The notes under the pieces were generated by a model that worked only from the letters and a program-made list of their open reading frames with translations, had not been told where the DNA came from and made no database searches. A program made the position numbers and the translations under genes. From a virus (lineage: Duplodnaviria > Caudoviricetes), in the IMG/VR virus record IMGVR_UViG_3300044611_001070, positions 1 to 64,000 of that record: 64,000 nt of DNA; one strand, 5' to 3'. Of the stretch, positions 5,432 through 57,132 are shown piece by piece (the first letter of the stretch is position 1; every line of letters begins with the position of its first letter).

Positions 5432-5454
5432 ATTTTACTAATATTTATTAAGGT

Positions 5455-6294: not shown

Positions 6295-6415
6295 CTAGTT
6301 TGTCTGGTATAGTATAAGAATATGTTCAAAAAAAATGTAAGTAAATAGAAAAAATTCATTATCGTGATATTTATAATAAAAAACTAAAATAAACTAAAAA
6401 CTAAAATAAAAAATT

Positions 6416-18200: not shown

Positions 18201-21200
18201 CAAATGATTTATCATCGTACAAACAAGCCGCATATCTATTCTTGAATAGTTTACCACTAGCAAGTCTTAGAGAAAAATATAGATCATATAACGAACCTAA
18301 TGATTTAAGTTATATATTATCAACCATTAAAAAATTTGGAGCGGTACATAAATTACCATACGCTTGGGTTGTTAAATATGGTTCCATATGGCATAGATAT
18401 AAAACTTGGAATGATACTGGTGTAGATATATTAGATGAGGTTTGGAAAGATTTTGATTATTTAGGTAATTATGATCCTGTAACCTCGGCATCAACAAAAG
18501 TTTATTCTTTGAATATTGAAGGATTCCAAAACAATATAGTTTTAGAAAATACGGTAAATTCAACACCAAACTTAGTTGCATATAATTCAACAACTATGAA
18601 TACAGGATTTTTTCCTAAGTTGTATGATGATATGAATGTATTCTTACAAGGATTACAATTATTTTCGGGGACAACACAATTAAATGGTACTTGTAGTATT
18701 GTTGGAACAACATTAGACGTTTATACTATTAATGATAATAACTTGGCTCCTGGCGAAGTATTAGCCGGACCAACAATAGATGCTAATACAACTATTGTAT
18801 CCCAAATAAATGGTACAACAGGAGGTGTTGGTAAATATACTGTTGATATATCTCAAAATACATCAATATTAAATGGTACTTGTAATGTTAATTTAACAAC
18901 AATGGACGTTTTAACGTTTAGTGGTGGTACATTATCTGCTGGACAAATTATTTCAGGACCAAATCTTGCTCTTGGAACTAAAATTGTTAGTCAAGTGAGT
19001 GGTACTACAGGAGGTGTTGGACAATATGTTGTTGATATATCTCAAACACTTACAGGAGAAAACTTTACTGTGGTTACACCAAACATTTTTTATGTTACTA
19101 ATTCATCAACAGGTGGATATTCACAAACTGAAATCCAAACATTAATTAATGATGGTAAAATGGTGATGACAACAAACGAAGGTGGTAAAATTATTGAAAC
19201 AAGTGGTTTTGATCCTAACGATAATGATAGATCATTAAAAATAACGCCTTGGTCAACAATTGTTAAAACAACTGAAGGTGATAAATATTTTATAATGCCG
19301 TCTTTTGGTTACACAAAAAATCAAACAAAAGAGGAGTGTTTTAAAAATAACAAAATGAAAATAGAGGCTTCTAGTAATCCTGCGGTCTTTAACGGATCTG
19401 TTAGATTATTTTGGGGATCACCAAACTATGGTTATTTTGATAATACTAAAATTACAAAACCAAATCCTGATTCATATTTGAAAGAAATATTGTCGGATAA
19501 AAAAACACAACAGAATTTTTCATTGAATGGTGATATTACAAAATACGATAAAATATCGGAAATGTTTACAACATTTGATACGGAAATATTAGATTACTTT
19601 GAACAAGAGTTTTTAAATTTTAGTAGATCAATTTACGATTTTAAGACATTGGTTCCAAGTGATAAAGATGTTGAAACTGAATCGGAAAGATCATACAAGA
19701 ACTTTCAATTATTAATGAGAGAATTATTAGTTGTTGAAAAACCATCAACTCTTAATTCTGAGGGGATGATTAATTCTGTTATTGAAAAACAAAAAACAAC
19801 ATTTCAAGGAATACTAACTAATTTTTTAGAATATAATGTTGTATTAAAAATGGGTAATCCATCTATGTTTGATAGAAGAACATTTTTAACATTCTCTACT
19901 AAATTCTTAATTGATCCTGTGTCATATCAAGGGTATAGTCAAGGAACATCAGGAAGTTTACCATCAAACGGTGGAACTATTACATTGGCTCAATCTAAAA
20001 TTGCAAACCCTGAAACATGGAAAACTTTAGAGAAATATGTTGGGTTTTCAGAAATACCTGAGTTAGTTTATTCCGATAATGGATCATATATAACAGATTT
20101 CTTTATTGATTTGAATGTACAATTTACTGAAAAAAATATTAAAGATTTTGCTCCGTTGATTATGTTATATGCAACACAAAAACTTAATAATTTTGAAGTC
20201 CCAACAAATAATGTTTTTATCCCAAATCCCGTTCCGACACCCGCACCAAGTCCTCAAACACCTGGTGATTTATTAATGGTTGTAACACTTAAAGATACTA
20301 AAACAATTTCTGTGTATAAATTTGGACCACAAAAATATGGTGTTTATAAAGATGCTTCAGGAACAATTTTATATACTGGTCCGTCACTTAGTGCGTTTCA
20401 ATATCCATTAAATATTACGGTGGTTAATGAAATTATTATAAGTCAATATTCTACGGGTTTAGCATCAACACCTAATGACCCACAATTTATTATTAGTATT
20501 GTTAATGTAACTCCTTCACAAGTAACAACAACTACCACCACACTTCCTATTGTTCAAAATTTAGGTAATAGTTTAGGTGGTGTTAAGTTTTATGGACTTA
20601 TGGATGAATACCTTGATAAATCTGAAATTTATTTAAAAAATGTTATTTCTAATTTAATGACAGGAGTGAGAGCTGGTTTACCAAATATTACAATAGAGGG
20701 TGATAAAGGTAATAAGTCACAACTTGAGGGAGAACAAACAAGAGTTGAGATATGGGAAACATTCAAAGCGTTTAATGATACTTGGGTTGCCGGTGGTGAT
20801 TTTAAATCAAAAACAATGTTTGAAGATGTTTTATTATTTGATAGGGCAAGTAGAGACGTTGGACAAAAAGTTTATGTTGATATCTTTAAAATTAAAGATT
20901 TAATTGAAGGTTCATTATATAAAAATAATATGTTGGATATTGTATCAACAATTTTAACTCAAAATAATTTTACTTATTTCCCATTACCTGCTTATGCTAA
21001 TTTCTATAACGCACAAGATGCTGAAAAAAATCCTGTACCAAGAAGTGAAGGATCAACTGAATTTGCTAACTCATTTTGGGGTACGTTCTTAAATGTGGAC
21101 TACAGAAACACATCACCTAAGTTTTTATGTTATTACGCAAACAAACCTAGCCAGTATGTGGATATGAAGGATAATGTTGATTATAGATTTAGAGATGACG

Positions 21201-22411
21201 CTTTTGATCTTAGAAGAGCAAGTGATAATCCATTAGTTGAAAATCAATCTAATAAAAAAAATTGGGATAAATCAAATAAAGTTGTTGGGTTTAATATAGA
21301 CATTAGTAATCAAAATCAACAAATATTTAAAAATTTTAGTGTTGGTCAAGATGTTGGTAAACCTACTGCAGAATCTTTGGAGATGTTAAATCAAATGGCA
21401 AACCAAAGTAGAAACAGAAGTACAGGATCTCAAAACGTATCTTTATATAACTTATATAGAAATAGAAGTTACGAATGTTCTGTTGATATGTTAGGTAACG
21501 CTCTTATACAACCCATGATGTACTTTAATGTAAGAAACATACCTATGTTCTCAGGGCCATATATGATTACTTCGGTAACTCATCAGATTAGTGAAGGTGA
21601 ATTTAGTACAACATTTAAAGGTACAAGACAACCTTTTTATAGTTTACCTAAAATTGATAGTTTTATACAATCTTTAAGTTTGGATATAATATCTAAATTA
21701 CAGGAACAAGTAAAAGCAAATGAAGAAAAGAAAAAAAACTCAAGTGAAAATGTGATATTCCAAAAAAATAATGTGGTTTCAAATGTAACCGGTACTGATA
21801 CAATAACTAAAAATCAAGATTGTTCTGATAAAATTAATAGTGGTTATGTTGGGTATACACCATTAGATAGTCCAACATCAACTCAAATATCATATAAGGA
21901 TTTTAAAAAATTACTTGGAGATAGAATTGTCGCAAGTGGGGTACCAAAAGAAACAACAAGTAATAGTGTAACAACTATTAATCCTACTTTTAGAGATTTA
22001 TCTTATTATTTATTCTCATTTATTTATTTAGATTCCGCATCATCAAGTGGAATGAAAACTTATGAGAATAATTATAGTACAATTAATTTAACTGAAACTT
22101 ATGGGGAGGTACTTGCCAAAACAACTAATAAAAAGTTCTATTGTCTTTCAAGAGGCACTAATTTGAACATACCAATTGTATCATTTATATCTGCTGAAAA
22201 ATTTGTAGATTTTGCGATTGCTAGATTCAAAGATAAATTATCTTTAATTAATACAAATCTTACTGCTCAAGAGGATATTGTTAAATTGTATGTTACAAAG
22301 TATCCAATTAATCAACCTGATAATGTTTATACTGAAATGACAGAACAAGATAAAAATACATTACAAAATAAAGTAAAACAGGCAATAGATATATATAACT
22401 CAATAAATTAA
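15284..22411 (+). CDS. giant baseplate hub protein (gp27/gp44/VgrG-like termini, large insertions)
   Basis: N-terminal LGITDI....P.V.V.LVDVKGRALF..FF.LPYP.F.LT.KGYYG. C-terminal CSVDMLGNALIQPMMYF...PMFSGPYMITSVTHQI..F.T.F.G.R. Follows the LysM gene. Confidence 0.65.
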   Translation: MVDKGENILVEFDYDNITLIDPNKIVDSEGKVSDRLVKHENLVFYANLECNVLPRTKLALGSALNDSIRTVSVGKINFLNPGNKTFMDNRYTDEITGKGSVQGQGVNQPKLNAVQNPNKSDDFYLTQSTYSNGTPGAVDNGLLGITDIQVAIDTSFLPTVTVSLVDVKGRALFEGGNNSPYSAFFQLPYPMFYLTLKGYYGKAVRLPLMLQSFTSNFDNSSGNFKITLKFFGYKYTVMSYVNWGAMMAVPHMYNNFVSTTQASTNTTTGSNLEAVTQKPISRGYQKMKELYSEYKSKGLIDDDFPEITITQLKARLDRFINNILEKFTKENLGSITELDNFQTQLTEFQKKVFFYGDSWFETYMDKKNSYSLKDTKEVVYTYKKDYSDPNKQAEAETKLAGIFTEYQKLLESNSVAGKNGSYTVGGKITKSEVPVNATVEKCYAKINPLTDIDFAKTYEERTGKPSKTQTELDTFIATNSIAPGTKFFVFEGTDHFIDITEKAAKESSKLRREIEEKITDNLNEQLSKDTGVGFKPSIRNVLAVFFAQGEAFIRLMDDVHSKAWDLRENKYRRQAIFGSNSSALSVDVKSSTQNNEPIYPWPQVIKETLGDDKQEKFEIVYPGDKSISTMTKAYIPEIWPEVEFVEEFIKGYTDRVPKNPDYGDESNVVTRPNRLSLNALDFPVTNEVFQNKEEIKFFYEIYERIMVNTYYSKLNRQSGYDASIFMVEAEDEKINILKSLGDDNPFLTQKLKRYLIDQNNFLTFLRHISNQGQGESWQKFIRGEFTINYLKNKTNVPFELFNQQILTNERSQPNVSLTDESKIIDYIGNQTSSNEFDFSDMYPITNFNWCKNYLADGEALQNVNLAYNTKDVLSYNTTHKTICNFNNDDTNDKKRPITNFNYKADVFSQNINTSNFKTFYNNRKIEEQFTTEGNLNYSNYDGFLTETQTTSILNTPYFINAIQNGVYNFRYKPNDLSSYKQAAYLFLNSLPLASLREKYRSYNEPNDLSYILSTIKKFGAVHKLPYAWVVKYGSIWHRYKTWNDTGVDILDEVWKDFDYLGNYDPVTSASTKVYSLNIEGFQNNIVLENTVNSTPNLVAYNSTTMNTGFFPKLYDDMNVFLQGLQLFSGTTQLNGTCSIVGTTLDVYTINDNNLAPGEVLAGPTIDANTTIVSQINGTTGGVGKYTVDISQNTSILNGTCNVNLTTMDVLTFSGGTLSAGQIISGPNLALGTKIVSQVSGTTGGVGQYVVDISQTLTGENFTVVTPNIFYVTNSSTGGYSQTEIQTLINDGKMVMTTNEGGKIIETSGFDPNDNDRSLKITPWSTIVKTTEGDKYFIMPSFGYTKNQTKEECFKNNKMKIEASSNPAVFNGSVRLFWGSPNYGYFDNTKITKPNPDSYLKEILSDKKTQQNFSLNGDITKYDKISEMFTTFDTEILDYFEQEFLNFSRSIYDFKTLVPSDKDVETESERSYKNFQLLMRELLVVEKPSTLNSEGMINSVIEKQKTTFQGILTNFLEYNVVLKMGNPSMFDRRTFLTFSTKFLIDPVSYQGYSQGTSGSLPSNGGTITLAQSKIANPETWKTLEKYVGFSEIPELVYSDNGSYITDFFIDLNVQFTEKNIKDFAPLIMLYATQKLNNFEVPTNNVFIPNPVPTPAPSPQTPGDLLMVVTLKDTKTISVYKFGPQKYGVYKDASGTILYTGPSLSAFQYPLNITVVNEIIISQYSTGLASTPNDPQFIISIVNVTPSQVTTTTTTLPIVQNLGNSLGGVKFYGLMDEYLDKSEIYLKNVISNLMTGVRAGLPNITIEGDKGNKSQLEGEQTRVEIWETFKAFNDTWVAGGDFKSKTMFEDVLLFDRASRDVGQKVYVDIFKIKDLIEGSLYKNNMLDIVSTILTQNNFTYFPLPAYANFYNAQDAEKNPVPRSEGSTEFANSFWGTFLNVDYRNTSPKFLCYYANKPSQYVDMKDNVDYRFRDDAFDLRRASDNPLVENQSNKKNWDKSNKVVGFNIDISNQNQQIFKNFSVGQDVGKPTAESLEMLNQMANQSRNRSTGSQNVSLYNLYRNRSYECSVDMLGNALIQPMMYFNVRNIPMFSGPYMITSVTHQISEGEFSTTFKGTRQPFYSLPKIDSFIQSLSLDIISKLQEQVKANEEKKKNSSENVIFQKNNVVSNVTGTDTITKNQDCSDKINSGYVGYTPLDSPTSTQISYKDFKKLLGDRIVASGVPKETTSNSVTTINPTFRDLSYYLFSFIYLDSASSSGMKTYENNYSTINLTETYGEVLAKTTNKKFYCLSRGTNLNIPIVSFISAEKFVDFAIARFKDKLSLINTNLTAQEDIVKLYVTKYPINQPDNVYTEMTEQDKNTLQNKVKQAIDIYNSIN
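18680..19045 (+). repeat. tandem duplication of a 63-aa beta-rich module (189 nt period) in the hub protein
   Basis: LNGTC...GP....T.IVSQ..GTTGGVG.Y.VDISQ occurs twice, starting at 18680 and 18869. Confidence 0.9.
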
Positions 22412-30722: not shown

Positions 30723-31181
30723 ATGGCAAATGGAATAACATACGGGATAAATTTTCCTTTTAGAGAATCTTACGTTGGTAAATATTTAGATATTTCTGAT
30801 ACAACTGAAGAAGAAGTAAGAAGTAATTTAATTCATTTATTGTTAACTAGAAAAGGGTATAGATATTATCTTCCTGATTTTGGAACAAGATTGTATGAAT
30901 ATATTTTTGAACCTCTTGATGGACCTACATTTAGTGAAATTGAAGGTGAAATTAGGGATTCTGTTGAAAGATATATGCCTGGTGTACAGATAACAAATAT
31001 CTCAATAACCGACGCTTCTTTAGGTGAGGAAAATAAGGGTACTTTTATTAATCCTGATGGAGAAAGAGAATTTAAAGTACAAGGTATAAGCGACAAAGAA
31101 CATACCGCAAAAATTAAAATAGATTATAAAGTCACAAATCAAGCTTTTGAAAGTAGTGATTTTGTTATTATCAATATTTAA
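30723..31181 (+). CDS. baseplate wedge subunit (gp25-like)
   Basis: GINFPF, NL..LLLT.KG.R...PDFGT.L...IFEP. Confidence 0.93.
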   Translation: MANGITYGINFPFRESYVGKYLDISDTTEEEVRSNLIHLLLTRKGYRYYLPDFGTRLYEYIFEPLDGPTFSEIEGEIRDSVERYMPGVQITNISITDASLGEENKGTFINPDGEREFKVQGISDKEHTAKIKIDYKVTNQAFESSDFVIINI

Positions 31182-31187
31182 TAGTAT

Positions 31188-33026
31188 ATGGCTGAGAAAA
31201 AAATATCATACACAACTAGAGATTTCCAAGGAATAAGAACTGAGTTAATTAACTTTACCCGTACTTATTATCCTGATTTAGTACAGAACTTTAACGACGC
31301 TGGTGTTTTCTCAGTAATGTTAGATTTAAATGCTGCCGTTACAGATAACCTACAATTTAATATTGATAGAAGTATTCAAGAAACGGTATTACAATTTGCA
31401 CAACAAAAATCTTCAGTATATAATATCGCTAAGACTTACGGGTTAAAAATTCCGGGTCAAAGACCTTCGGTGGCATTAGTAGATTTCTCAATAACGGTTC
31501 CCGCATTTGGTGATAGAGAAGATTTAAGATATTGTGGTATTCTAAGGAGAGGATCCCAAGTAAGTGGTGCTGGTCAACCATTTGAAACCGTTTACGATAT
31601 TGATTTTGCCTCGGCAATAAATTCTGAAGGAACATTAAATAGATTAAAGATACCTAACTTTGATGCTAATGGTAAAATATTAAATTACAACATTGTAAAA
31701 AGGGAAGTTGTTGTAAACGGGTTTACAAAAGTATTCAAACGAGTTATTACACCAAACGATGTAAAACCATTCTTTGAATTATTCTTACCTGAAAAAAATG
31801 TTTTAGGTATAACAAGTGTCCTTTTAAAAGATGGGACTCAATTTAATACAATTCCAAATCCACAGGACTTTTTAGGGTTAAGCGATAGATGGTATGAAGT
31901 TAAGGCACTTGCTGAAGACAGAGTATTCATTGAAGATCCAACTAAAGTTTCTGATCAACCTGGCACTAAGGTTGGTAAATATATTTTAACTAACACTAAA
32001 TTTACATCTGAGTATACACCTGAAGGTTATTTAAAAATGACATTTGGTGGTGGTAATGTTTCTGCTGAAGAACAACTTAGAGATTTTGCAAGATCAGGTA
32101 AAGGATTTGATTTAAATAAATATTCTAACAATTTAGCTTTAGGTGCGGCTCTTAAGTCAAACTCAACATTGTTTATACAATATAGAGTTGGTGGTGGACA
32201 AGCAACTAATTTAGGTGTTAATGTAATCAATCAAATTGGTACTGTTTCATTCTTTGTTAATGGTCCATCGGAAAGTATTAACAGATCTGTTATTAATACA
32301 TTGAAATGTAATAACGTTACTGCGGCGATTGGAGGGGCAAACGCACCAACACTTGAAGAAGTAAGAAATATGGTATCATATAACTTCTCAGCACAAAACA
32401 GAGCGGTTACAATAAATGATTACGAATCAATTATTAGAACAATGCCATCTCAGTTCGGAGCACCAGCAAAAGTTGCAATTACTGAAGAGAATAATATGAT
32501 AAAGATAAAAATGTTATCTTACGACACAAGTGGTAATTTAACTGATACGGTTTCTAATACATTAAAAACTAATGTTGCAAACTACCTATCAAATTATAGG
32601 ATGATTAATGATTACATTTCAATAGAAAGTGCAAACCCAATTGATTTGGCGGTTAATGTTGATGTTGTGTTAGACGCTAGTCAAAATCAAGGTGCGGTTG
32701 TATCTAAAATCATTGATATTATCACAACATACTTTAGTCCTACAACAAGACAATTAGGTCAAAATGTTGTGGTATCTGAATTAAGAAGATTAATCCAAGC
32801 GGAAAATGGAATAATAAGTATTTCTGATATGGAATTTTTTAATAAAGTTGGGGGGCAATACTCGTCAAATCAAACATCTCAAAAATATTCAGATCCGGCA
32901 ACTAAACAAATTCAATTAATTGCAGATACAATTTTTGCTGAACCTACTCAAATATATCAAATTAGATTTCCTAACAAAGACATCAATGTTAGGGTCATCA
33001 ATTTAAGTACGGTTAATTTTTCCTAA
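31188..33026 (+). CDS. baseplate wedge subunit (gp6/baseplate J-like)
   Basis: RDFQ.IR.EL, D...QE....AQ...S...IA...G, FG.G, Y.VGGG...N, AQNRAVT..DY. Confidence 0.9.
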   Translation: MAEKKISYTTRDFQGIRTELINFTRTYYPDLVQNFNDAGVFSVMLDLNAAVTDNLQFNIDRSIQETVLQFAQQKSSVYNIAKTYGLKIPGQRPSVALVDFSITVPAFGDREDLRYCGILRRGSQVSGAGQPFETVYDIDFASAINSEGTLNRLKIPNFDANGKILNYNIVKREVVVNGFTKVFKRVITPNDVKPFFELFLPEKNVLGITSVLLKDGTQFNTIPNPQDFLGLSDRWYEVKALAEDRVFIEDPTKVSDQPGTKVGKYILTNTKFTSEYTPEGYLKMTFGGGNVSAEEQLRDFARSGKGFDLNKYSNNLALGAALKSNSTLFIQYRVGGGQATNLGVNVINQIGTVSFFVNGPSESINRSVINTLKCNNVTAAIGGANAPTLEEVRNMVSYNFSAQNRAVTINDYESIIRTMPSQFGAPAKVAITEENNMIKIKMLSYDTSGNLTDTVSNTLKTNVANYLSNYRMINDYISIESANPIDLAVNVDVVLDASQNQGAVVSKIIDIITTYFSPTTRQLGQNVVVSELRRLIQAENGIISISDMEFFNKVGGQYSSNQTSQKYSDPATKQIQLIADTIFAEPTQIYQIRFPNKDINVRVINLSTVNFS

Positions 33027-46200: not shown

Positions 46201-46229
46201 TAAATTTTCAAATAATATGTAATCAATAA
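43203..46229 (+). CDS. baseplate wedge protein (gp7/P2 tail I-like)
   Basis: LL..LA..LGW and [15 protein letters not shown]...G....I.EY motifs. Confidence 0.7.
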
Positions 46230-49200
46230 TGGGTATTATAAATATAAATCAATTTAATATAACAGGAGATTGTACAAATCAAGGGTTAGGTGTTGTAACT
46301 TTTACTGTAACTGGTGATAGTCCTGATTGGTTAGTTATTGAAAGTCCTACCGCTAACCTTAATTTACCCACATCTGGATTAACAACAACAATAATTGATG
46401 TAGGGCCACCAATAATATATAATAATGTCTATTATTATTCAGGTTTAAGTGCGGGTAGTTATTTTTTACAAGTATATGACTCAACATATAGTAATTATGA
46501 GGTTGTAAATTTTAATATATCACCAGGAACCTGCGTATCAATTGAAACTACAAACACTACTTGTGGTTTTGATAACGGAGGCATAACCGCAACAACAGAA
46601 TATTATTATGGTGGTGGTATGGGATCTACTTTTGCTTTATATGATATTGATAATAATTTTATTTCAAGTGGAAGTTCAACAAATACTGAATATGTTTTTC
46701 CTCCTGTTTCTGCTGGAACTTATTATGTTGTTGCGGATGATGGGGGTGGTTGTACAGGTAAATCCGCGTCTTGTATTGTAACAAACTCAATACCTTTTGA
46801 TTATGGTTATTATGTTGTAAATGATGGAAGTTGTATAAATAATGATGGTAGTGGTAAAATATTTTTAACAGGTTTATCTGATCCAAGTTTATACACAGTT
46901 AATTGGTTAACAAGTGTTAATGGACAAACTGGGACAACGGTAACAGGTTTAACTGCAGGTTTATATAACGTACAAGTCACAAATAATGATGGTTGTACTC
47001 TAAGTAAAATAATAACTGTTACTGGTGTAGACCCATTGGGTATTGGTGGTTTTATGACATATCCACCAAGTTGTTTCACTAATGATGGTGAAATAAACAT
47101 AATTGTAACAGGTGGAACCGCGCCATATTATATTGGATGTTCTAATGGTGATAGCGCAATAATATTTAATAATGAGTATACTTTTACAGGTTTATTTTCG
47201 GGGACATACAATTTTAACATAATAGATGCCGGAGTATGTACTGTATCGGGAACAACGTCTATCAACACGGCTAATAGTTTTCAAGTATTAAGTATTAATA
47301 CCACAAATTCAATTTGTAATAATAATTCGGGATCGGTAAATATTACTTTAATTGGGTCAGGATATTACACATATATTTTAACAGATTCATTAAATGATAC
47401 AACAACTTTTGGACCTACTAATAATATAGTACAAGATTTTGATACATTATCTTCAGGTGATTATGATTTGGTAATAACTGATGGTGTATGTACATATGAA
47501 ACTACAATTACAATTGATAATACTGAACTATTTACAATTTCGGCTATTACTCAAAATACTACTTGTGGGTTAAGTAATGGGTCAATACAATTATTAGCAA
47601 GTAGTGGTGGGACATTACCTTATAGTTATCAGATTACAGGATTTCCACCATCCCCAATGTCAACATTTAATAATCTATCTCCTGGAAATTATACTGCCAC
47701 AGTTACAGATCTTGCAGGTTGTAGTCAGACATTAGATTTATATATTAACGATTCATATGGTGTATTATTTGACTTAGTTGTGACTCAACCAACATGCGGG
47801 AATAATGGTGAAATATCAACCTTAATATATGAGGGCAACCCAACATTTACCTATAATTGGAGTCCAAATGTTAATGGTCAAACTGGAACAACTGTAACAT
47901 CATTAAGTGGTGGAACATATAGTTTGGAAATAATTGATTCAAGTGGATGTACAAGTACTGAAACCGTTGTTTTAAATGGGACTAATGTACAAGTAAGTTA
48001 TCAAACATATAATATATGTAATGATAATTTCCAAAATACAGGAATACTTGGTAAAAGAAGTATACAACAAATGTTTGCTGAAGGTTTTAGTGATTTAACA
48101 TATGATGATACTGGATGTATTATTGTTAGTGCAAATTTTATTGCCGACATTACTGTTGATGGAGAAAATACTCAACAATCATTCTACGTTTCTTCAGGAT
48201 TAACTGATTATCCATCTGACTATGAGTGGGGTCAAGCAATTACTGAAACTTTAGAAAGTTATAGTGGTATAAGTAAAGTTGAAATTAATTACTCACTTAA
48301 TCAAATTAAAATATATAATAAATGTGTTGAAATAGATGGGTGTTTACCTGAAACCATTTATTATCTATCTGATGCAAATATTGTGATCAATTTAAAATTG
48401 GAATATAATATTTCTTGTTATCAATGTATTGTAACACCAACACCAACGCCAACACAAACTACAACACAAACATTAACGCCAACACAAACGCCAACACAAA
48501 CGGTAACACAAACATTAACGCCAACACAAACATTAACGCCAACACAAACATTAACACCAACACCAGGATTATCGCCAACACCAACTCCTACTCAAACATT
48601 AACTCAAACGTTAACACCAACTGAGACTCCAACTAATACACCTACTCAAACACCAACAGAAACTCCTACATTAACACCAACTAATACCCCTACGTTAACT
48701 GTAACTAATACTCCTACTCAAACATTAACTCAAACTTTAACTTCTACGCCAACTGAAACCCCTACTCAAACGCCAACTGAAACCCCTACTTCAACACCTA
48801 CATTAACGCCAACTGAGACCCCTACATTAACGCCAACTGAGACGCCAACTAATACTCCTACATTAACTCAAACATTAACACCGACACCTACTCAAACATT
48901 AACTCAAACTGAGACCCCTACTTCAACACCTACTCAAACGCCAACAGAAACACCTACATTAACGCCAACAGAGACGCCAACTAATACTCCTACATTAACT
49001 CAAACATTAACACCAACTGAAAGTCCAACAAATACTCCTACTCAAACACCAACTCCAACACCAACACCAACACAATTTAGTCAAATTAAATGTAATGAAG
49101 GAACTATACCAAAGGACGTCGTATACTCATATTACTCATGTTGTTACCCTTACGGACAAATAAGTGGAACAACTGGAGGAAGTCCGATAACTGTATGTTA

Positions 49201-49516
49201 TAACTCTTATTCTGCTACTACAAATGTTACCATAGTTTCACCTGAAGTAATATGTGATACATCAGGATTAACTAGTTGTTGTGAAATTCAATTGGGTTAC
49301 AGTCTACTTATTCCATCCCCACCTTGTAATGTAGGTTCTTTAACGACATACTATATAAGTAGCTCTTGTCTTGCAACTAGTTGTGATTTGAGTGGTGCGT
49401 TTGCAATATACACAGATGAATATTGTACTATACTCGCAGATGACGGGACTTATTCAGATAATAGTAACTATGGTTCACAAAATAGTGGAGTTTTTACTTT
49501 TAATGGACCATGTTAA
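46229..49516 (+). CDS. fibre/adhesin-like protein: SprB-like repeats, Thr/Pro stalk, Cys-rich tip
   Basis: Repeated TC...G.I.....GGT.PY.Y......F..L..G.Y...V.D..GC units, a Thr/Pro tract of about 210 aa, and a Cys-rich C-terminus. Confidence 0.75.
48434..49072 (+). repeat. degenerate coding tandem repeat (TPTQ/TLT/TPTE units), mucin-like
   Basis: Units such as ACACAAACATTAACGCCA recur and encode (T-x)n. Confidence 0.95.
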
Positions 49517-49611
49517 AAATATAATTAAATATTTATAATGGAGTAATTTCATTATCAAAACCTTATTAAAATAAAATTCACTTTTATATATTATATAATA
49601 TATTTTAATAT

Positions 49612-50586
49612 ATGGAAAATATTCTTTTTGTAACCGCACAACCTGACGTACCTTATTTTCATTGGCAAGTAAAATTATATACACATAATTTTATTGAGAA
49701 AGGAATTAAACCTTGTCAGATCCATGTTATTTTTGGTTTACAAAAAAAACAACAACCATCAAAAGGAGCATTAGAATTATGTGATTATGGGTATAATGTT
49801 CATTTCTACGATGACGACAGAGATAAAAAATCTTATATACCAAGTATTAAACCATATTTAATTTACCAATGGCTAAAAGAATATCCCGAAAACGGGAAGT
49901 TATTTTTTTTACACGATTCTGATATTATATTCAATAGATTACCTGATTTTGATAAATTATTAAATGATAATATTTCTTATTTATCTGATACAATAGGGTA
50001 TATTGGTTACAACTACATTAAAGATTGTTGTGATAGATATGAGAAACAACACCCATCATCAAACAAAGAACAATTATTTCAAGAAATGGCCGACATAATT
50101 GGAATTGATGTTGATTTAATTAAACAAAACCAAGAAAATTCGGGTGGAGGTCAATACCTAATCAAAAATACGGATCCACTATTATGGGCTAAGATTTATG
50201 ATGATTGTACACCATTATATAACCAAATGTTAGATTATCAAAAAAGATTTCCAATTAACCCTGGTCAAATACAATTTTGGACTGCAGAAATGTGGTCATT
50301 ATTATGGAATATGTGGAATTCTGGATATAAGACAAAAATAACAAATGAATTTGATTTTTCTTGGGCAACTGATGATATTGATATTTATAATGAAAAACCA
50401 ATATTACATATGGCAGGTGTAACTGATAATTTAAAAACTACAAAATTTTATAAGGGAGATTTTATAAACAGGAATCCGATTGAGGATTTAATAAATGATA
50501 ATAATTTCTTTAATTATGTGGATAAAAATAGTTCCACAATTAAATATATTGAAGTAATGAAGTCATTTTTGGAAAAAAATAAATAA
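49612..50586 (+). CDS. GT-A glycosyltransferase resembling plant peptidyl-serine galactosyltransferase / hydroxyproline arabinosyltransferase (GT96/GT95-like)
   Basis: Ordered motifs YFHWQ, YIPSIKP...QWL, FFLHDSDIIF (DxD), GGGQY, WTAEMW, ILHMAG. Confidence 0.75.
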   Translation: MENILFVTAQPDVPYFHWQVKLYTHNFIEKGIKPCQIHVIFGLQKKQQPSKGALELCDYGYNVHFYDDDRDKKSYIPSIKPYLIYQWLKEYPENGKLFFLHDSDIIFNRLPDFDKLLNDNISYLSDTIGYIGYNYIKDCCDRYEKQHPSSNKEQLFQEMADIIGIDVDLIKQNQENSGGGQYLIKNTDPLLWAKIYDDCTPLYNQMLDYQKRFPINPGQIQFWTAEMWSLLWNMWNSGYKTKITNEFDFSWATDDIDIYNEKPILHMAGVTDNLKTTKFYKGDFINRNPIEDLINDNNFFNYVDKNSSTIKYIEVMKSFLEKNK

Positions 50587-50603
50587 CTGATTATTTATTA
50601 GTA

Positions 50604-51923
50604 ATGGCAACTAAACCGATATCAATTAAACCTGCAAATGAATGTGAAGTATTAACTCTATTTCCAATGGTGTTAATATGTAATAATACAAATCCAAGTA
50701 CATTAGAATCGTGTGATGGGTCAATTAGCCTTATGGTTAGTGGTGGTACACCACCATATGAAATTAATTGGGAACAAGGTGGATATGGACAAACAATAGA
50801 TAATCTTACTTATGGTGATTATCCCGTAACTGTGGTTGATTCTTATGGTGATTTTACGGCAACTACAATATGTAGTTTAATTCCTGAGACAACAACAACT
50901 TCTACAAGTACCACAACAACAACTACTTTACCTGCTTATAGTGGTTTATGTATGAATATTATTGATACAATTGGAGCTAATTCTGAAATACATCAATTTT
51001 TATTTAATGGATATTTAAATGGTATGCCTACTTGGATATCTGATGATAATTTATATAACATATATTGGAGTACAGGAACAACAAGCCAATGGTTAGTTGA
51101 TGGATGGACTAATGGTATTATATATAATTCAAATACATCTACACCTCCATTAACGGGATGGCAATTTTTAGGTGGGGATTGTTTAGGGTCATATATAATT
51201 ACTGTATTGGAAGGAGATTGTGTAAATAATGTTATAATAAATTTATCTATAAATGTTAATTCCCCAACCTGTGGTAATAATGGTAGTATTATTGTTACGG
51301 CAAATGGAGGATCACCAGCTTACCAATATTCAATTAATGGTGGAACAACTTATCAGTCTAGTCCAGTATTTACTAATCTATTACAAGGTATATATGTTGT
51401 TAAGGTTAAAGATTCAAATAATATAACAACAACACAAACTGTTACATTATTAGCTCCACCTCCTAATCAAACATATCAATTAAAATTAACTTTAACTGGA
51501 CCTAATTCATTTGATATAACTGTAAACCCAACATTACCTAGTGGAGCTTATATTACTTTTGATTTAAAACATAATAGTGTATTTAAAGTGGCACCTTCAC
51601 CAACCGCCGCTTTATATGATAATATAGTTACTGTTAATGTTAATGGTTCTCCAATAGCAACACCATCGCCTATGTTAAGTACAAGTACTACGTTTAATCC
51701 TTGTAATTCTGGATCAATATATAATAATACAAATGTCACTACTTGGAATACCTTATTATTTAATTCAACAACAATAATAAATGGTAGTTTTACAAATACT
51801 ATAAACCCAATAACACCTTTAGTTACCTGTTATTCAGTTAACGGGACAACTAAATTATTTATGACAAATGTTATATTAAATAATTGTAATTGTTGTAATG
51901 TTACAATTATAAATCCATCATAA
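50604..51923 (+). CDS. SprB-like repeat, Thr-rich, Cys-rich structural/adhesin protein
   Basis: Two C...G.I....GG.P.Y.Y.....L..G.Y.V.V.DS units, a TTTTSTSTTTTTT linker and a CNCC C-terminus. Confidence 0.7.
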   Translation: MATKPISIKPANECEVLTLFPMVLICNNTNPSTLESCDGSISLMVSGGTPPYEINWEQGGYGQTIDNLTYGDYPVTVVDSYGDFTATTICSLIPETTTTSTSTTTTTTLPAYSGLCMNIIDTIGANSEIHQFLFNGYLNGMPTWISDDNLYNIYWSTGTTSQWLVDGWTNGIIYNSNTSTPPLTGWQFLGGDCLGSYIITVLEGDCVNNVIINLSINVNSPTCGNNGSIIVTANGGSPAYQYSINGGTTYQSSPVFTNLLQGIYVVKVKDSNNITTTQTVTLLAPPPNQTYQLKLTLTGPNSFDITVNPTLPSGAYITFDLKHNSVFKVAPSPTAALYDNIVTVNVNGSPIATPSPMLSTSTTFNPCNSGSIYNNTNVTTWNTLLFNSTTIINGSFTNTINPITPLVTCYSVNGTTKLFMTNVILNNCNCCNVTIINPS

Positions 51924-51955
51924 TAAAATTGAGTAATAAACTATTTATTGATTAA

Positions 51956-54469
51956 ATGAGTTATATATTAAAAAATACATCAGGGTTGGTTAGTACTAGA
52001 ATTACTGACACCGGAAGGTTAAAATTATCACAAGGTAATTTTAATATATCCTATTTCCAAATTGGAGATAGTGAAGTGTCATATAATGAATTACCAAACA
52101 CTTATAATCAATCAAATAGTGTTGTTTTAGAACCAAGTTTTAATAGTCAAAATAATGCTGGATCTCCTGAATCAAACAAACAAAATATTAAATACCCATA
52201 TTATGTTGATGACAATAATATTAATACATATGGTATACCATTTATGGATTCTGTTATTGAACCTGTTTATAATAGAGCCCCACTAAGAGGATTTTTCACA
52301 GGTAATACAACTGCATCAACAATTAATTATAGTGCATTTACTGGGTCAAAATATGTTGTCACATCCAATTATATTGTTGATATGTCAACATTAGATGGGT
52401 CAAATCAAATAACAATTATTCAAGACATATGTGACCCAACAAATACCAATAAACCTGGTGTTGGAGATTTTATTACAATATATTATGATGGTTTAGCAAA
52501 GTATGATTGTTCTTGTGTTAATTTACCGACACCAACACCAACGGCAACAATAGGTACTACACCAACATTAACTAATACTCCCACTGTGTCAAATACTAAT
52601 CTTGACCCGTGTGCGTCACCAACACCAACTCCAACTCCATCGGCAACACCTTGTTTGACACCATCAAACAAACCTGTTTGTCCTATACCACCTGATCCAT
52701 CATGTGTTAAACCTGTTCACTCATGTTTTCCTATCTTAACTTATAGAATTATTGATATTTGTGAGAACAATGTGACTTTGGATAGACCAACACCAAATTA
52801 TATTGGTTTAAGTACGTATTGTTTTGGTAGAGTATTGGTATATCCACCGAATATGACAACAATATATGATAGTATCACACCTAGACCACATTGGAATGAT
52901 GATGTTATTAATTTTGAGTCAATTTGTGATATTGATCAGTTTGATGTGAAAGTATGGAATATGAATATTCCGTGGACTGAAAGTCCTGCAGGATTAAGAT
53001 CTACTGAGTATGAAGATTATACGTATTTTGGTTCTATTGATTATATTGGTAGTAAAGAATATTTTGGATATAATTCTACATCAGGACAGACTGATACAAG
53101 TTATGTGTATTATTATAACTCATTTGATGAAATTGTTCAGGTTAAACCTGAGGAACAGAAGGCAATTGCAATTATACATTATACAAATCAAACTATAGAT
53201 TTCTTCTATGGTGAGAAATTTGCGTTAGAACCGTATAACAATTCAAACCCTGATGATACAACAGGACAAGCAAGAAACTTTAAATTACATATGCCAACAT
53301 TAATGTGGCATAAAAATCCTGAGTGTTGTTATGGTCAAACATTTTGGGTTGATCCTCCGGGATTTGATGGAAAAGATTTATTCCAAGTTCAATATATTAA
53401 GTCAACTAAGAATACTGATATGAATCAACCTGGTATTCGTTATTATCACTTGTGGGACACTAATGCAAATGCAGATGGATTACCAAGTAGAGTTGGTAAA
53501 GTATTCCCTGATAGTAAATTAATTATTATTGATGATGAGGAAATTATTGCGGCGTTATCATACAAGTCAAATAGAAACTGGACGTTAACGGCACCACAGG
53601 TGTCTTTAATAACTCCTAACACTTGTGGTTTAACTACCGCAACTACTGAAGGTATTTTAACAGGTAGTAGTGAAACTATGTTTGTTACTTATAGATTAAG
53701 TAATCCTTACAATTTTACTAATTCACTACATTCTAACTATTATTCTAAAATAACTGGTAATAATAATGATTGTAATCCTGACACATCTAAAAATGTGGCG
53801 GTTAGATTTGGTGCCGAGTTTAAATGTTTAACACAACCTGGATATAGTCCGATAACAACAACTACCACATATCCTTTATTAACAACGACTACAACTTATT
53901 TACCATTAACAACTACCACAACAACACATTGTCCAATTACTTGTGATACACCTAATGGATTCTTTGCAACTAACTTCCAAGTAATAGCACAAAAAGTGGT
54001 AACAGGACAAAGACCTGATCCATCTAAATGGAAAGTTATTGACTACACTAGTTCGTTATCAACAACAACAATAAATGGGTATATAACTGAAGAAGGTTTA
54101 ACTGGAACAACATTTGTTATTACTCCTGATCTTTATAATAATGCACCATATTATAATCTTAATAATTTCATTCCATTAACACCACTTGGTACTACCACAC
54201 CTAATCTTAATTTTGGTGATGAGTACTTTTTCTACGGAGCATTTGAAAGTGATATACAGGCAACAATTTATGAGATGAGGTATAAAGTAAATTTAAGTTT
54301 TGCTGAATTTCAAACCACAACAAATCCTACATGGAAAAAAGGATCTAATTCTTATGTCACTGAGATTGCGTTACTTGATAGTAATAAAGATGTTATGGTT
54401 GTTTCTAAGATGCAATCACCTGTGTTAAGACAAGGTATACAACAGTTCGTAGTTAAGTTAGATTTGTAA
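51956..54469 (+). CDS. baseplate/tail-fibre attachment protein with Thr/Pro insertions
   Basis: N-terminal TD.GR.KL..G.F.ISYF..GDSE..Y and C-terminal YVTEIAL.D......V.K...P......F.VKLD, as in tail-collar-type proteins. Confidence 0.6.
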   Translation: MSYILKNTSGLVSTRITDTGRLKLSQGNFNISYFQIGDSEVSYNELPNTYNQSNSVVLEPSFNSQNNAGSPESNKQNIKYPYYVDDNNINTYGIPFMDSVIEPVYNRAPLRGFFTGNTTASTINYSAFTGSKYVVTSNYIVDMSTLDGSNQITIIQDICDPTNTNKPGVGDFITIYYDGLAKYDCSCVNLPTPTPTATIGTTPTLTNTPTVSNTNLDPCASPTPTPTPSATPCLTPSNKPVCPIPPDPSCVKPVHSCFPILTYRIIDICENNVTLDRPTPNYIGLSTYCFGRVLVYPPNMTTIYDSITPRPHWNDDVINFESICDIDQFDVKVWNMNIPWTESPAGLRSTEYEDYTYFGSIDYIGSKEYFGYNSTSGQTDTSYVYYYNSFDEIVQVKPEEQKAIAIIHYTNQTIDFFYGEKFALEPYNNSNPDDTTGQARNFKLHMPTLMWHKNPECCYGQTFWVDPPGFDGKDLFQVQYIKSTKNTDMNQPGIRYYHLWDTNANADGLPSRVGKVFPDSKLIIIDDEEIIAALSYKSNRNWTLTAPQVSLITPNTCGLTTATTEGILTGSSETMFVTYRLSNPYNFTNSLHSNYYSKITGNNNDCNPDTSKNVAVRFGAEFKCLTQPGYSPITTTTTYPLLTTTTTYLPLTTTTTTHCPITCDTPNGFFATNFQVIAQKVVTGQRPDPSKWKVIDYTSSLSTTTINGYITEEGLTGTTFVITPDLYNNAPYYNLNNFIPLTPLGTTTPNLNFGDEYFFYGAFESDIQATIYEMRYKVNLSFAEFQTTTNPTWKKGSNSYVTEIALLDSNKDVMVVSKMQSPVLRQGIQQFVVKLDL

Positions 54470-54521
54470 AAAACTTTAGTTTTAACATCTTACTATTATA
54501 TTATAATAAAACAATCTTTTT

Positions 54522-55130
54522 ATGAGAACACCAATGAAAAACTCACCTAAAGTATTGGGATTAGACATCTCAACTAAAACAATAGGGTGGGCACTTTTTG
54601 ATATTAAAACACAAGATTTATTAGAATTAACTCACGTATCTCCAAGACCTAAAAATAAAGATACTGATGAAAATAAGATGTTAGAATTAATATTAAAATC
54701 TGAAGTATTTAAAACTAAATTAGAGGATTATAAAAAATTAGGGATTGTAAGTGTTATTATTGAAGAACCATTATTAAACTCTAATAATGTTTATACAATC
54801 CAAACTTTATTAAGATTTAATACGTTAATATGTAAAACAATTTATGATGTTTTAGGTATCGTTCCTGAATTTATATCAACTTATAACTCAAGAAAATTTG
54901 CATTCCCTGAATTAGTTCAAGAAAACGATAAAAAGAAACACGTTTTATTTGGCGGACTTCCTAAGGACATTGATAAGAAAATGATCATATGGGAGTTGGT
55001 TGCAAAAAAAGAACCTCAGATCCAATGGCAATACACAAGAAACAATACTTTAAAGAAAGAAAACTTTGACCAAACAGATGCTTATGCTTGTGTGTTAGGT
55101 TATATGAGAAGTAAGGAAATTTGGAATTAA
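54522..55130 (+). CDS. ruvC: RuvC-like Holliday junction resolvase
   Basis: VLGLDIST..IGWA, VIIEEP, D..DAY acidic catalytic set. Confidence 0.8.
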   Translation: MRTPMKNSPKVLGLDISTKTIGWALFDIKTQDLLELTHVSPRPKNKDTDENKMLELILKSEVFKTKLEDYKKLGIVSVIIEEPLLNSNNVYTIQTLLRFNTLICKTIYDVLGIVPEFISTYNSRKFAFPELVQENDKKKHVLFGGLPKDIDKKMIIWELVAKKEPQIQWQYTRNNTLKKENFDQTDAYACVLGYMRSKEIWN

Positions 55131-55156
55131 TATCGTTTAATTTACCGATAATTTAG

Positions 55157-55186
55157 AATATCGTCTTTTTAGACGATATTTTTTTT
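55157..55186 (+). terminator. terminator between convergent genes
   Basis: AATATCGTCT-TTTT-AGACGATATT followed by a T run. A weaker TATCG..CGATA hairpin lies at 55131-55150. Confidence 0.8.
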
Positions 55187-55210
55187 GTCTTATATTTTTA
55201 ACCACAAATA

Positions 55211-56911
55211 CTATCCACTACATGGATATACTGCAATACATGCCGCACAACTATTTGTACCTACAAAAATAACTCCGGCACCAACGGGTGATCCAACAGA
55301 TGTAGAAACTGTAGTCCAACAATTATTATTGTAAACTACTCTTTGACCCGCAATAGTTCCTGAAGGTAATATTAAAATAATATCCGGACTAGCCAAACAA
55401 CAATCAGAAACTAACCATTTATCTCCACCTGTTTGAGTTAATGTTTGGGTAGGAGTAGGAGTTAAAGTTTTTGTTGGGGTTGGTGTTAATGTTTTTGTTG
55501 GGGTTGGTGTTAATGTTTGTGTTAATGTTTGAGTAGGAGTTTGTGTTAATGTTTGTGTTAATGTTTGAGTAGGAGTTTGTGTTAATGTTTGTGTGGGGGT
55601 AGATGTTAATGTTTGAGTAGGGGTAGGAGTTAATGTTTGCGTAGGGGTAGATGTTAATGTTTGTGTTAACGTTGGAGTTGGAGTTAACGTTGGTGTTGGT
55701 GTTGACGTTTTTGTTGGTGTAAGTGTTGGTGTGGACGTTAGTGTTGGTGTAGGAGTTAATGTTTGAGTAGGGGTAAGTGTTGGTGTCGGTGTAGGAATAA
55801 TACATTCAGAACACGAACCTTCTGATTCAAGACCTAAAATATCTGTTAAAACTATAGTAGAAATTCCGGCAATATTATCAACAAAACCATCATAAATTAT
55901 ACAAGTTGATATACCATCAACAAATGATTGGTATACATATCCTTCATCTGGTGTATTACCTAAAGGATCTAAAACAACATCTGTTGTGTAATATAAAAAT
56001 CCTGTGTAACATTCTTTAAATCTTTTACTACCTGAACATTTAATATATTCATCAAATGTGTTAAACACAACAGATCCATCAAAATTACAATTATATTGTG
56101 GTGATATAGTCGGTGTTGGTGTTGGTGTTTTTGTTGGTGTTGGTGTTGGTGTTAAAAAACTTACAACTACTGAAATTCCTACACCTCCACAAATTTCAGT
56201 TGCGGTTGGTGTTGGAGTTGGTGTTGGATCTGGTGTATTTGTAAGTGTTGGAGTAGGAGTTAAAGGTAACTCACAATCAAACGCAACCTCAAAAGATATT
56301 GGTTGACAATATTGTGTTGTTGTTGGTGTTGGAGTGGGACAAGCCCCATAGTTAAAAAAACTATTACATAAATTAGGGCAATGGTCAAAACAAGGAGACG
56401 CTCCAAATAATAAACAATCACCACCTAACGAATTTGATAAACACCAAGAATTTTCCGATGAAGAAAAAAATATGTAATATCCGTTATTTCCTGACCAATA
56501 ATTATTAGAATTATATGTCCCCCCACTATAATAGTTATCATAATATGGTTCAACATCTACACAATAAGATATTGAGCATGATGAAGGTGTCAATGTTGGT
56601 GTTGACGTTAATGTTGGTGTTGGTGTTAATGTTGGAGTTGCCGTTGGTGTACATTCAGGACAATCACAACATACAATTTCCACGATACCACCTTTACTTG
56701 CATCATAATAATAGATATTATTACCATCACTAAAATATATATCCGCTGGAAAAGTGGTACCAGTACAAAATGGATCATAATATAGATCCCCACTTAATAG
56801 GTCTAAACTATCGCCATAAATTGCGGTGGGGTACGGGACAGGATGTGATGGTTCACATATATCATCTATACTATTACTTAACTTAAAAGAACCTAAAAGA
56901 TTACACGCCAT
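55211..56911 (-). CDS. modular Cys-rich protein with five Thr/Pro linkers (putative fibre/decoration protein)
   Basis: 566 aa. Small Cys-rich modules separated by TPTPT tracts, the longest about 120 aa. Confidence 0.75.
   Translation of the reverse strand: MACNLLGSFKLSNSIDDICEPSHPVPYPTAIYGDSLDLLSGDLYYDPFCTGTTFPADIYFSDGNNIYYYDASKGGIVEIVCCDCPECTPTATPTLTPTPTLTSTPTLTPSSCSISYCVDVEPYYDNYYSGGTYNSNNYWSGNNGYYIFFSSSENSWCLSNSLGGDCLLFGASPCFDHCPNLCNSFFNYGACPTPTPTTTQYCQPISFEVAFDCELPLTPTPTLTNTPDPTPTPTPTATEICGGVGISVVVSFLTPTPTPTKTPTPTPTISPQYNCNFDGSVVFNTFDEYIKCSGSKRFKECYTGFLYYTTDVVLDPLGNTPDEGYVYQSFVDGISTCIIYDGFVDNIAGISTIVLTDILGLESEGSCSECIIPTPTPTLTPTQTLTPTPTLTSTPTLTPTKTSTPTPTLTPTPTLTQTLTSTPTQTLTPTPTQTLTSTPTQTLTQTPTQTLTQTLTQTPTQTLTQTLTPTPTKTLTPTPTKTLTPTPTQTLTQTGGDKWLVSDCCLASPDIILILPSGTIAGQRVVYNNNCWTTVSTSVGSPVGAGVIFVGTNSCAACIAVYPCSG
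55430..55797 (-). repeat. coding tandem repeat (TPTQTLT units)
   Basis: GTTAATGTTTG(A/T)GT units recur on the + strand. Confidence 0.95.
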
Positions 56912-57132
56912 TATATATTAATATTTTCTATTATCACACAATCGTTATCATCAATTACTTTAACCACAAAATTTGTTAATGAGGAAAAAATTGATGGAAT
57001 TATAAAAGAATACGGTAAATTACCACTATTGATGGTTGATACATATATACAAGTTGTGTATCCTGTATCACATACGTAAACATCATATGATGGTATTCCG
57101 GTTATTGAAGTAATTGTAATTTGCGTACTCAT
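56911..57132 (-). CDS. small beta-rich protein
   Basis: 73 aa. ITITSITG..YDVYVCD.....C..VKVIDDNDC. 1-nt overlap with the downstream gene. TATTTAT upstream on the - strand (57151-57157). Confidence 0.7.
   Translation of the reverse strand: MSTQITITSITGIPSYDVYVCDTGYTTCIYVSTINSGNLPYSFIIPSIFSSLTNFVVKVIDDNDCVIIENINI

Follow-up and report, generated by a model that had tools for sequence, protein, structure and literature searches.

Phages documented so far to glycosylate their virions with enzymes of their own are mycobacteriophages, i.e., Che8 (gp108–110), Corndog (gp38) and Myrna (Freeman et al. 2023, as cited in PMC12619734, PMC12363180 and PMC13313380). The glycans are reported on the C-termini of capsid and tail-tube subunits, and virion glycosylation is reported to shield the particles from antibodies (PMC12363180). 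Here we analyze a window of 64,000 nucleotides from a virus of the Caudoviricetes (positions 1 to 64,000 of IMG/VR record IMGVR_UViG_3300044611_001070), in which the open reading frame (ORF) at 49612–50586 on the plus strand codes for a 324-amino-acid (aa) protein of the family phrog_4417, function unknown. We propose, with a probability of roughly 0.7, that this enzyme O-glycosylates runs of threonine (Thr) on virion proteins and that it is a cytoplasmic, metal-dependent glycosyltransferase of the GT-A fold, probably with retaining chemistry.

Like the mycobacteriophages, the phages compared here encode their own glycosyltransferases. Moreover, the same two subunits, capsid and tail tube, bear poly-Thr tags in Firmicutes phages, as judged from their genes alone. 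Unlike in Che8, the enzyme genes lie beside the presumed targets; those of Che8 are found at the far right genome end, and in Che8 neither the capsid nor the tail protein has a poly-Thr C-terminus. There is also no sequence kinship, i.e., alignment of the family profile with hhalign gave probabilities of 0.04% for gp110, 0.12% for gp109 and 1.07% for gp108. The family occurs in phages of Bacillota, in Bacteroidota-type phages and in one Arcanobacterium phage, and no Mycobacterium phage is named among the 77 phage records retrieved with tblastn.

Mucin-type and serine-rich-repeat systems use dedicated enzymes for dense O-glycosylation of disordered Ser/Thr tracts, which become stiff, protease-resistant brushes. 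They employ GT27 ppGalNAc-transferases or GtfA/B (GT4), in contrast to the GT8-like fold and the short Thr homopolymer on a virus particle considered here. According to its entry title, A64R of PBCV-1, a virus-encoded GT-A enzyme, acts in the cytoplasm to glycosylate the major capsid protein of the virus itself. The predicted structure of the window enzyme matches it with a Z score of 11.1; unlike the window enzyme, A64R has a much smaller domain (206 residues) and belongs to a eukaryotic virus, and the two share 12% identity. To our knowledge, PBCV-1 A64R is not associated with a poly-Thr tag. The phenomenon is known; the enzyme family is a different, large and unnamed one, the acceptor tag is distinctive and minimal, and the host range is wide. 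Full-text literature searches, outside which most subscription journals lie, brought up no account of the family or of phage capsid and tail proteins that end in poly-Thr, and no report that Firmicutes phages glycosylate their virions. An initial annotation of the window, made from its letters alone, had known of no characterized case of this family either.

Co-variation of the enzyme gene with poly-threonine runs

Loci for the co-variation analysis, from three tail-protein families of Firmicutes phages and from the window's own clade, were fetched via a virion protein, not via the enzyme, and both characters were then scored. Among 27 loci of the phiFL1A tail-protein family, the enzyme gene lay immediately downstream in all 12 with a poly-Thr tail and in none of the 15 without. 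We built a tree of the tail-protein core, i.e., with the tail removed, and left out L111, the tail protein of which is cut by a contig end. This tree requires four changes, at least three of them forced by supported branches.

In the iLp84 family, 60 of 80 loci were assessable, and 20 with less than 4 kb upstream were dropped. All 31 enzyme-positive loci had two or more poly-Thr ORFs, compared with none in 24 and one in five of the 29 enzyme-negative loci (Fisher p 3e-12, a value that ignores relatedness). The iLp84 tail protein is encoded 1.4 kb from the enzyme, across four genes, and carried poly-Thr in 30/31 enzyme-positive versus 5/29 enzyme-negative loci. For the smaller VPE25 tail-protein family (seven loci) the corresponding numbers were 4/4 and 0/3, the three negatives being distant at 31–37% identity.

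The window clade was collected via an 837-aa neighbor of the enzyme. Assessable were 78 of 80 loci; L224 and L271 were dropped for their short upstream sequence. At least one run was present in 72 of 73 enzyme-positive loci (median 3) and in none of the five enzyme-negative ones (Fisher p 2.8e-7, again ignoring relatedness). We masked the Thr/Ser runs of the 837-aa protein and built a tree from it, leaving out L210 for its truncated protein; this tree requires four changes of enzyme state, and poly-Thr agreed in 4/4 independent contrasts. The five enzyme-less contigs had no family member over their whole length, and one of them is a 100%-complete genome of 257 kb. We also counted (ACN)7 matches genome-wide in near-complete relatives. 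There were none in the enzyme-less genome versus 1–6 in four enzyme-bearing ones; the reversed pattern, used as control, matched 0–8 times, and this count therefore carries little weight.

The 77 named records comprise phages of Enterococcus, Lactobacillus, Lacticaseibacillus, Staphylococcus, Lactococcus, Clostridium, Arcanobacterium and Chryseobacterium. Siphoviruses have the enzyme gene within the morphogenesis operon, where it immediately follows the gene for the major capsid or the major tail protein. We took one representative from each of about 13 groups formed from these records and surveyed 8 kb around the enzyme for tags, defined as a run of at least six Thr/Ser with at least five Thr. 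The initial annotation had held that homologues common in phages without Thr-rich proteins would speak against Thr glycosylation; a Thr-rich protein was found within 8 kb of the enzyme in 13/13 representatives. In 11 of them it was a poly-Thr protein, and most of the runs formed a C-terminal tail on the major capsid protein, the major tail protein or both. In the other two, 521B and LP65, the homologues diverge most (27% and 24% identity), and the genes immediately upstream have Thr-rich short repeats at their ends, i.e., (TTV[KA]P)n in 521B and the TETQTQTQ type in LP65, and one of the LP65 repeat-tailed proteins is annotated as structural from two-dimensional gels and mass spectrometry. These tails are a hint that (T-x)n repeats, too, can be acceptors.

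In some phages, small proteins of 88–129 aa that consist largely of four or five poly-Thr runs are encoded directly upstream of the enzyme (Table 1). They look like dedicated glycan-carrier decoration proteins; in enzyme-less relatives, an unrelated 101-aa protein takes their place. Two unrelated groups of Lactococcus phages share a tag end in which HHD or RHD comes after nine or ten Thr (phage 1706, L407:7229-7969 and 4462-6522; bIL285, L406:10099-10731), which suggests a host- or enzyme-specific end. The PMBT8 'major tail protein' (L403:7618-7935), with just 105 aa, ends in 16 Thr and could represent only part of a gene that is longer or frameshifted.

In the reverse direction, 118 phage stretches had an (ACN)10 match, and 90 of these an in-frame run of at least eight Thr. 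Eight of the 90 hold the family, and in all eight the enzyme and the poly-Thr ORF abut.

Enzyme and tags could merely travel together in a mobile cassette, with poly-Thr as a linker or spacer and no tie between enzyme and substrate. Often the gene that abuts the enzyme has the tag at its 3' end, so that one recombination could move both. Moreover, five mosaic loci keep a distal tag after losing the head-side cassette, and these phages commonly have Thr/Pro linkers whether or not the enzyme is present. Against mere co-travel, tags several conserved genes away still co-vary, as in the iLp84 tail protein and the window-clade insert (1.8–4.4 kb from the enzyme); bIL285 orf50 and 1706 orf10 are further tagged genes not adjacent to it. 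Physical linkage is therefore not the whole account. The pairing also recurs in 13 unrelated genome architectures of both siphoviruses and myoviruses. We consider simple co-travel very unlikely and retain an enzyme–substrate relation as the likelier explanation of the co-variation.

Fold and relatives of the 324-aa protein

The match of the 324-aa protein to phrog_4417 has an E-value of 1.6e-70 and spans residues 6–318 on profile positions 3–290 of 293. An exhaustive search gave 838 clusters at 50% identity for the family, a further search more than 1,300 close homologues of the window enzyme, and at least 595 contigs in IMG/VR carry a member. No Pfam family matched the window protein at E<=0.1, and no NCBIfam model matched six family members. 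A sequence search of the PDB returned a single chance match (E 1.9), a profile search none.

In an alignment of 49 sequences, 13 positions are invariant, including D102, D104 and H266. G269 is invariant as well, and A268 and K281 are nearly so. Family-specific invariant residues are W18, Y75, Q221-x-W223 and M227. The equivalents of D102 and D104 are invariant also in 69 fused relatives. By analogy with GT-A enzymes, the DxD motif is the predicted metal and nucleotide-sugar site. H266 is a candidate third metal ligand by analogy with GT8 enzymes, in which this His belongs to a C-terminal H-x-x-G-x-x-K-P-W-like motif.

AlphaFold2 (AF2) modeling on the 49-sequence alignment gave a confident model (predicted local distance difference test, pLDDT, 97.4; predicted template modeling score, pTM, 0.94). 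Two independent structure searches agreed on a GT-A fold, i.e., a single Rossmann-like alpha/beta/alpha nucleotide-sugar domain. The nearest solved structures were glycogenin (Z 14.8), LgtC (14.2), the Skp1 alpha-galactosyltransferase (alpha-GalT, 14.1), the UGGT catalytic domain (14.0), WbbM (13.8), GlyE (13.5) and LARGE1 (13.3); 103 chains had Z>=8, and the top ones listed are nearly all nucleotide-sugar transferases. Foldseek returned 399 matches at E<=0.001, with WbbM, UGGT, XXYLT1 and LARGE1 at the top. Against viral models, the nearest matches after two family members were GT8 proteins of giant viruses. From the fold and the invariant DxD motif we conclude that the protein is a glycosyltransferase, in agreement with the initial annotation; its assignment to glycan synthesis is well supported.

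A different identity, major capsid protein, had been suggested by a VPE25 homologue at a possible capsid-gene position and by one homologue labeled 'major tail protein'. It was ruled out by the separate capsid gene of iLp84 and by the GT-A fold. Database annotations of the family and its neighbors look unreliable: GQ478085.1 gp49 is labeled 'major tail protein', and a homologue in CAJCJZ010000002.1 'hypothetical protein with lpxB motif'.

The retaining GT8-type enzymes (glycogenin, LgtC, GlyE, Skp1 alpha-GalT, UGGT) share the fold (Z 13.5–14.8 over 211–242 aligned residues) and the DxD motif, and H266 is the putative counterpart of their C-terminal His in an H-x-x-G context. Several of them act on proteins or protein-linked glycans in the cytoplasm, and GlyE belongs to the pathway of a pneumococcal serine-rich-repeat adhesin. 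Sequence identity is 7–12%, and the likeness is one of fold. The GT8 Pfam model PF01501 did not match the window protein at E<=0.1 and was not among the families found on the 49 relatives at E<=1.

The initial annotation had compared the enzyme with plant SGT1, the motif order of which its own presumably resembles, and with the related HPAT enzymes. SGT1 (GT96) and HPAT (GT95) are O-glycosyltransferases for low-complexity peptides rich in Ser and hydroxyproline. The HPAT model PF23452 did not match the window protein at E<=0.1, nor any of the 69 fused relatives at E<=0.001; it matched one of the 49 relatives at E 0.38, below significance. A genome-level search with PF23452 on the phage's own record and five phage records was without match, and as the controls were equally silent it shows nothing. 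No solved GT95 or GT96 structure was among the fold matches, the closest of which are GT8-type. Only a protein-language-model atlas points to the plant enzymes: the PF23452 set accounts for 18 of the 30 nearest named clusters, at scores of 0.96–0.97, and PF23452 is found on 10% and 58% of the members of the two clusters shown. Kinship with SGT1/HPAT was therefore not established, and we regard it as a lead, not a finding.

No DNA glycosyltransferase was among the fold matches listed; the lipopolysaccharide (LPS) and lipooligosaccharide (LOS) enzymes WbbM and LgtC tie with protein-directed enzymes among the nearest solved folds. The fold alone hence cannot tell the two kinds apart.

With an O-antigen (WbbM) and an LOS enzyme (LgtC) among the top matches, the protein could modify a host envelope glycan, i.e., LPS/LOS, teichoic acid or cell-wall polysaccharide, for example to block superinfection or in release. 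One relative carries a GT25 'LPS biosynthesis' domain, and many carriers are temperate (iLp84, phiFL1A, bIL285). Prophage-encoded envelope glycosyltransferases are well known (PMC12619734). An envelope target leaves the joint gain and loss with poly-Thr unexplained. Moreover, the gene lies within late morphogenesis operons, not at lysogeny or moron positions, and the hosts have very different envelopes. We therefore rate an envelope role as improbable, marginally more so than mere co-travel of enzyme and tags.

Glycosylation of DNA is the classic role of phage glycosyltransferases and has been described for them (PMC12619734). The enzyme could accordingly protect phage DNA with hydroxymethyl-pyrimidines against restriction or CRISPR, and in Herelleviridae its gene lies near replication genes. 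However, the hydroxymethylase family PF00303 (thymidylate-synthase family) was found in none of five complete small carrier genomes, against 10 of 14 reference genomes for the control. A DNA target would also leave the link with poly-Thr without explanation, and the fold matches listed, as stated above, do not include such an enzyme. We give this possibility hardly any credence.

The most serious variant concerns the step that is catalyzed. Here, the host or another phage enzyme would add the first sugar to Thr and the phrog_4417 enzyme would extend the glycan. Skp1 alpha-GalT, XXYLT1, LARGE1, LgtC and GlyE all extend existing glycans. In addition, relatives are often fused to a second glycosyltransferase domain, as multi-step glycans would predict: six of ten fused relatives carry PF11397, PF10250 or Glyco_transf_7C, and among a further 69 (E<=0.001) Glyco_transf_7C was found in five, GT6 in two, GT2 in two and GT25 in one. 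Some family members are fused to Methyltransf_24 and one to radical SAM and SPASM domains, which hints at further modification of glycan or peptide. Glycogenin, the top fold match, starts a glycan on protein, and this argues for initiation. In the 17-kb morphogenesis regions of iLp84, phiFL1A, bIL285 and 1706, the enzyme is the sole annotated or detected candidate glycosyltransferase, other families not having been scanned genome-wide. Finally, the enzyme tracks bare poly-Thr across hosts of three phyla, so that for extension every host must supply a priming enzyme. We consider extension unlikely, if the likeliest of the four alternatives, and continue with the enzyme as one that glycosylates the Thr runs themselves.

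Candidate acceptors and gene context in the window

All five sequence motifs given in the initial annotation were found in order in the 324-aa protein, i.e., YFHWQ (aa 15), YIPSIKP (75) with WL (87–88), HDSDI (101), GGG (178) and WTAEM (223). The Thr/Pro stretches that it had described around the gene were likewise present: a (T-x)n stalk directly upstream, 228 aa long compared with the roughly 210 aa given, and tracts in three further proteins (Table 1). Among the window's 40 larger ORFs, five have tracts in which Thr plus Pro make up at least 55% of 20 consecutive residues, i.e., the enzyme neighbors 46229, 50604, 51956 and 55211c and, with a tract of 34 aa, the sheath protein. Four of the five lie close to the enzyme; the clustering is therefore real and not a property of the whole genome.

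Table 1. Coordinates of the enzyme, its predicted functional sites and candidate acceptors in the window, and of small poly-Thr proteins in other loci
Feature	Position	Strand	Description
SprB-repeat protein upstream of the enzyme	46229-49516	+	1095 aa; 228-aa (T-x)n / TP stalk at aa 729-956, nt 48413-49096
GT-A glycosyltransferase, phrog_4417 member	49612-50586	+	324 aa; PHROG profile and AF2 fold
DxD motif D102-S-D104, predicted metal and nucleotide-sugar site	49915-49923	+	from conservation; preceded by strand 97-100
H266 in H-x-A-G, predicted third metal ligand (GT8 analogy)	50407-50409	+	from invariance
SprB-repeat protein immediately 3' of the enzyme	50604-51923	+	439 aa; 13-residue Thr/Ser run at aa 96-108, nt 50889-50927, candidate acceptor
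Conserved 837-aa protein	51956-54469	+	Pro-Thr linker at aa 185-243, nt 52508-52684; poly-Thr insert at aa 632-657, nt 53849-53926
Cys-rich 566-aa protein	55211-56911	-	three Thr/Pro tracts at aa 80-115, 211-277 and 367-498; without homopolymeric Thr run
7-Thr run, further candidate acceptor	13046-13066	+	within 1674-aa tail protein 9944-14968
6-Thr run, further candidate acceptor	20525-20542	+	within 2375-aa protein 15284-22411
Small poly-Thr proteins of other loci	L003:6504-6881 (iLp84 gp8); L113:5270-5659; L405:7654-7920 (Arcanobacterium phage TPWB06)		

Which of these tracts goes with the enzyme was assessed on relatives of the window phage. In an alignment of 837-aa orthologues, the Pro-Thr linker (residues ~185–243) is kept in four of five enzyme-less relatives. 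In contrast, the poly-Thr insert (~632–657), which consists of three runs of 5–6 Thr (nt 53855–53926), is absent in all five, with conserved sequence on both flanks. Four relatives with the enzyme likewise lack the insert, and three of them (L269, L272, L279) have a run of 10–13 Thr in the protein at the position of window gene 50604. The total length of Thr/Pro linker per locus is independent of the enzyme, with a median of 194 aa versus 106–581 aa in the five negatives (p 0.59). Relatives without the enzyme, e.g., L264 and L234, have long (T-x)n stalks as well, and minus-strand Thr/Pro orthologues of 55211c are likewise present in enzyme-less loci.

Stalks and Pro-Thr linkers hence persist without the enzyme, and the long stalk is not the feature that tracks it. 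From this comparison, poly-Thr runs would be likelier acceptors than generic Pro-Thr or (T-x)n linkers; the stalk of the 1095-aa protein may still be an acceptor when the enzyme is present. The initial annotation had placed the glycosylated Thr in the stalks. Its wider point, a tie between the enzyme and Thr-rich virion proteins, reappeared in many unrelated phages, but it is poly-Thr and not the stalk that varies with the gene.

The window belongs to a myovirus with genes for sheath, tube, baseplate hub and wedge, and with replication genes interspersed. Its source record has 95,735 bases and is estimated to be 33% complete. As relatives of the source phage reach 257–318 kb, the window phage is a jumbo phage. 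One of these relatives has inverted terminal repeats and 100% completeness, and this jumbo myovirus clade is abundant in metagenomes. That the enzyme gene interrupts a run of structural genes, as had been proposed, is plausible and was borne out in part: baseplate wedge genes lie at 30723–33026, and two neighbors of the enzyme carry SprB repeats (E 3.9e-10 in a Pfam scan for the 439-aa protein). The tract-bearing proteins themselves, candidate virion parts, have no annotated homologue in a PHROG scan or with tblastn. The 837-aa protein had no match among named phages (tblastn), and its AF2 model is poor (pLDDT 48.7, pTM 0.40), with both tracts in segments below pLDDT 50.

The sheath protein (2040–5384) is unusually long with 1114 aa, and its sheath-family match is confined to residues ~822–1112. 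Together with the Thr/Pro linker at aa 283–316, this implies large N-terminal insertions or decoration domains. The putative fiber block is split by a gene for a RuvC-like Holliday junction resolvase (54522–55130; phrog_159, E 7e-08), placed between the tract-bearing genes and the minus-strand Thr/Pro protein. Outside the window, a 404-aa protein (70126–71340 of the record) has six Thr, preceded by Ser, about 20 residues from its C-terminus. It matched no PHROG family and could be a tagged virion protein.

Proposed glycosylation of virion threonine runs

The proposed glycosylation of virion Thr tracts by a phage enzyme is strongly supported by the comparative evidence drawn from these genes. 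A number of observations speak against it. Among the points already given, the tie of LgtC and WbbM with protein-directed enzymes, the extension of glycans by several top fold matches where initiation is proposed, and the tract-bearing window proteins without annotated homologue belong here. In Herelleviridae, the enzyme gene lies near those for DNA polymerase, RecA and a sigma factor, outside the main structural block. No family member was found within 82 of the 90 poly-Thr stretches (median length 9.4 kb); poly-Thr thus does not need this enzyme, and the relationship is one-way. For the window clade alone, the sign test on four pairs gives p 0.125, and four of the five enzyme-less contigs are just 19–49% complete. 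L257 has the enzyme without a Thr run and is a true exception.

Five near-identical iLp84-type loci also count on this side, as they keep the poly-Thr tag of the tail protein without the enzyme. Their capsid protein stops exactly at the would-be start of the tail, and another protein stands in for the small poly-Thr one; the loci resemble mosaics with a retained tail module. In these Lacticaseibacillus prophage-like loci (L115, L116, L117, L121, L122), the head module lacks both enzyme and tags, and the tail module joined to it has a poly-Thr-tagged major tail protein. This is clear module mosaicism and offers a natural test of an unglycosylated tag.

Under the proposed mechanism, the enzyme would transfer sugar from a nucleotide sugar to Thr runs displayed on virion proteins. 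The likeliest acceptors in the window would be the 13-residue Thr/Ser run of the 439-aa protein and the triple poly-Thr insert of the 837-aa protein; the short Thr runs in the two giant tail proteins may be additional ones. The particle would come to carry mucin-like brushes of sugar on its exposed, disordered tags, with enzyme and tag forming a two-part module. We infer Thr as the acceptor, the start rather than the extension of a glycan, retaining chemistry and the donor sugar. For the phage, the benefit may be shielding, solubility or adhesion.

A more far-reaching version is offered tentatively, as its chances are somewhat below even. The enzyme might be a polypeptide Thr O-glycosyltransferase that starts the glycan on short poly-Thr tags. 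It would then form a portable 'mucin module' in phages of at least three bacterial phyla, acting on capsid, tail-tube, decoration and fiber proteins, and could be distant kin of GT95/GT96 with a CAZy family of its own. VPE25, phiFL1, 1706, bIL285 and LP65 would in that case have glycosylated virions that went unnoticed.

If the proposed glycosylation of Thr runs is true, glycosylated virions would be widespread, as the 838 clusters of the family imply. They would include Enterococcus and Staphylococcus phages of the type considered for therapy, dairy phages of Lactococcus and Lactobacillus, and abundant environmental jumbo phages. A simple rule would follow, i.e., a poly-Thr tag beside an enzyme gene of this family predicts a glycosylated protein, and the near-identical poly-Thr ends on unrelated capsid and tail proteins would be accounted for. 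Moreover, phrog_4417 would be a candidate for a new family of glycosyltransferases whose peptide acceptor is minimal, and enzyme and tag together might serve in bacteria as a two-part tool to O-glycosylate recombinant proteins at chosen sites.

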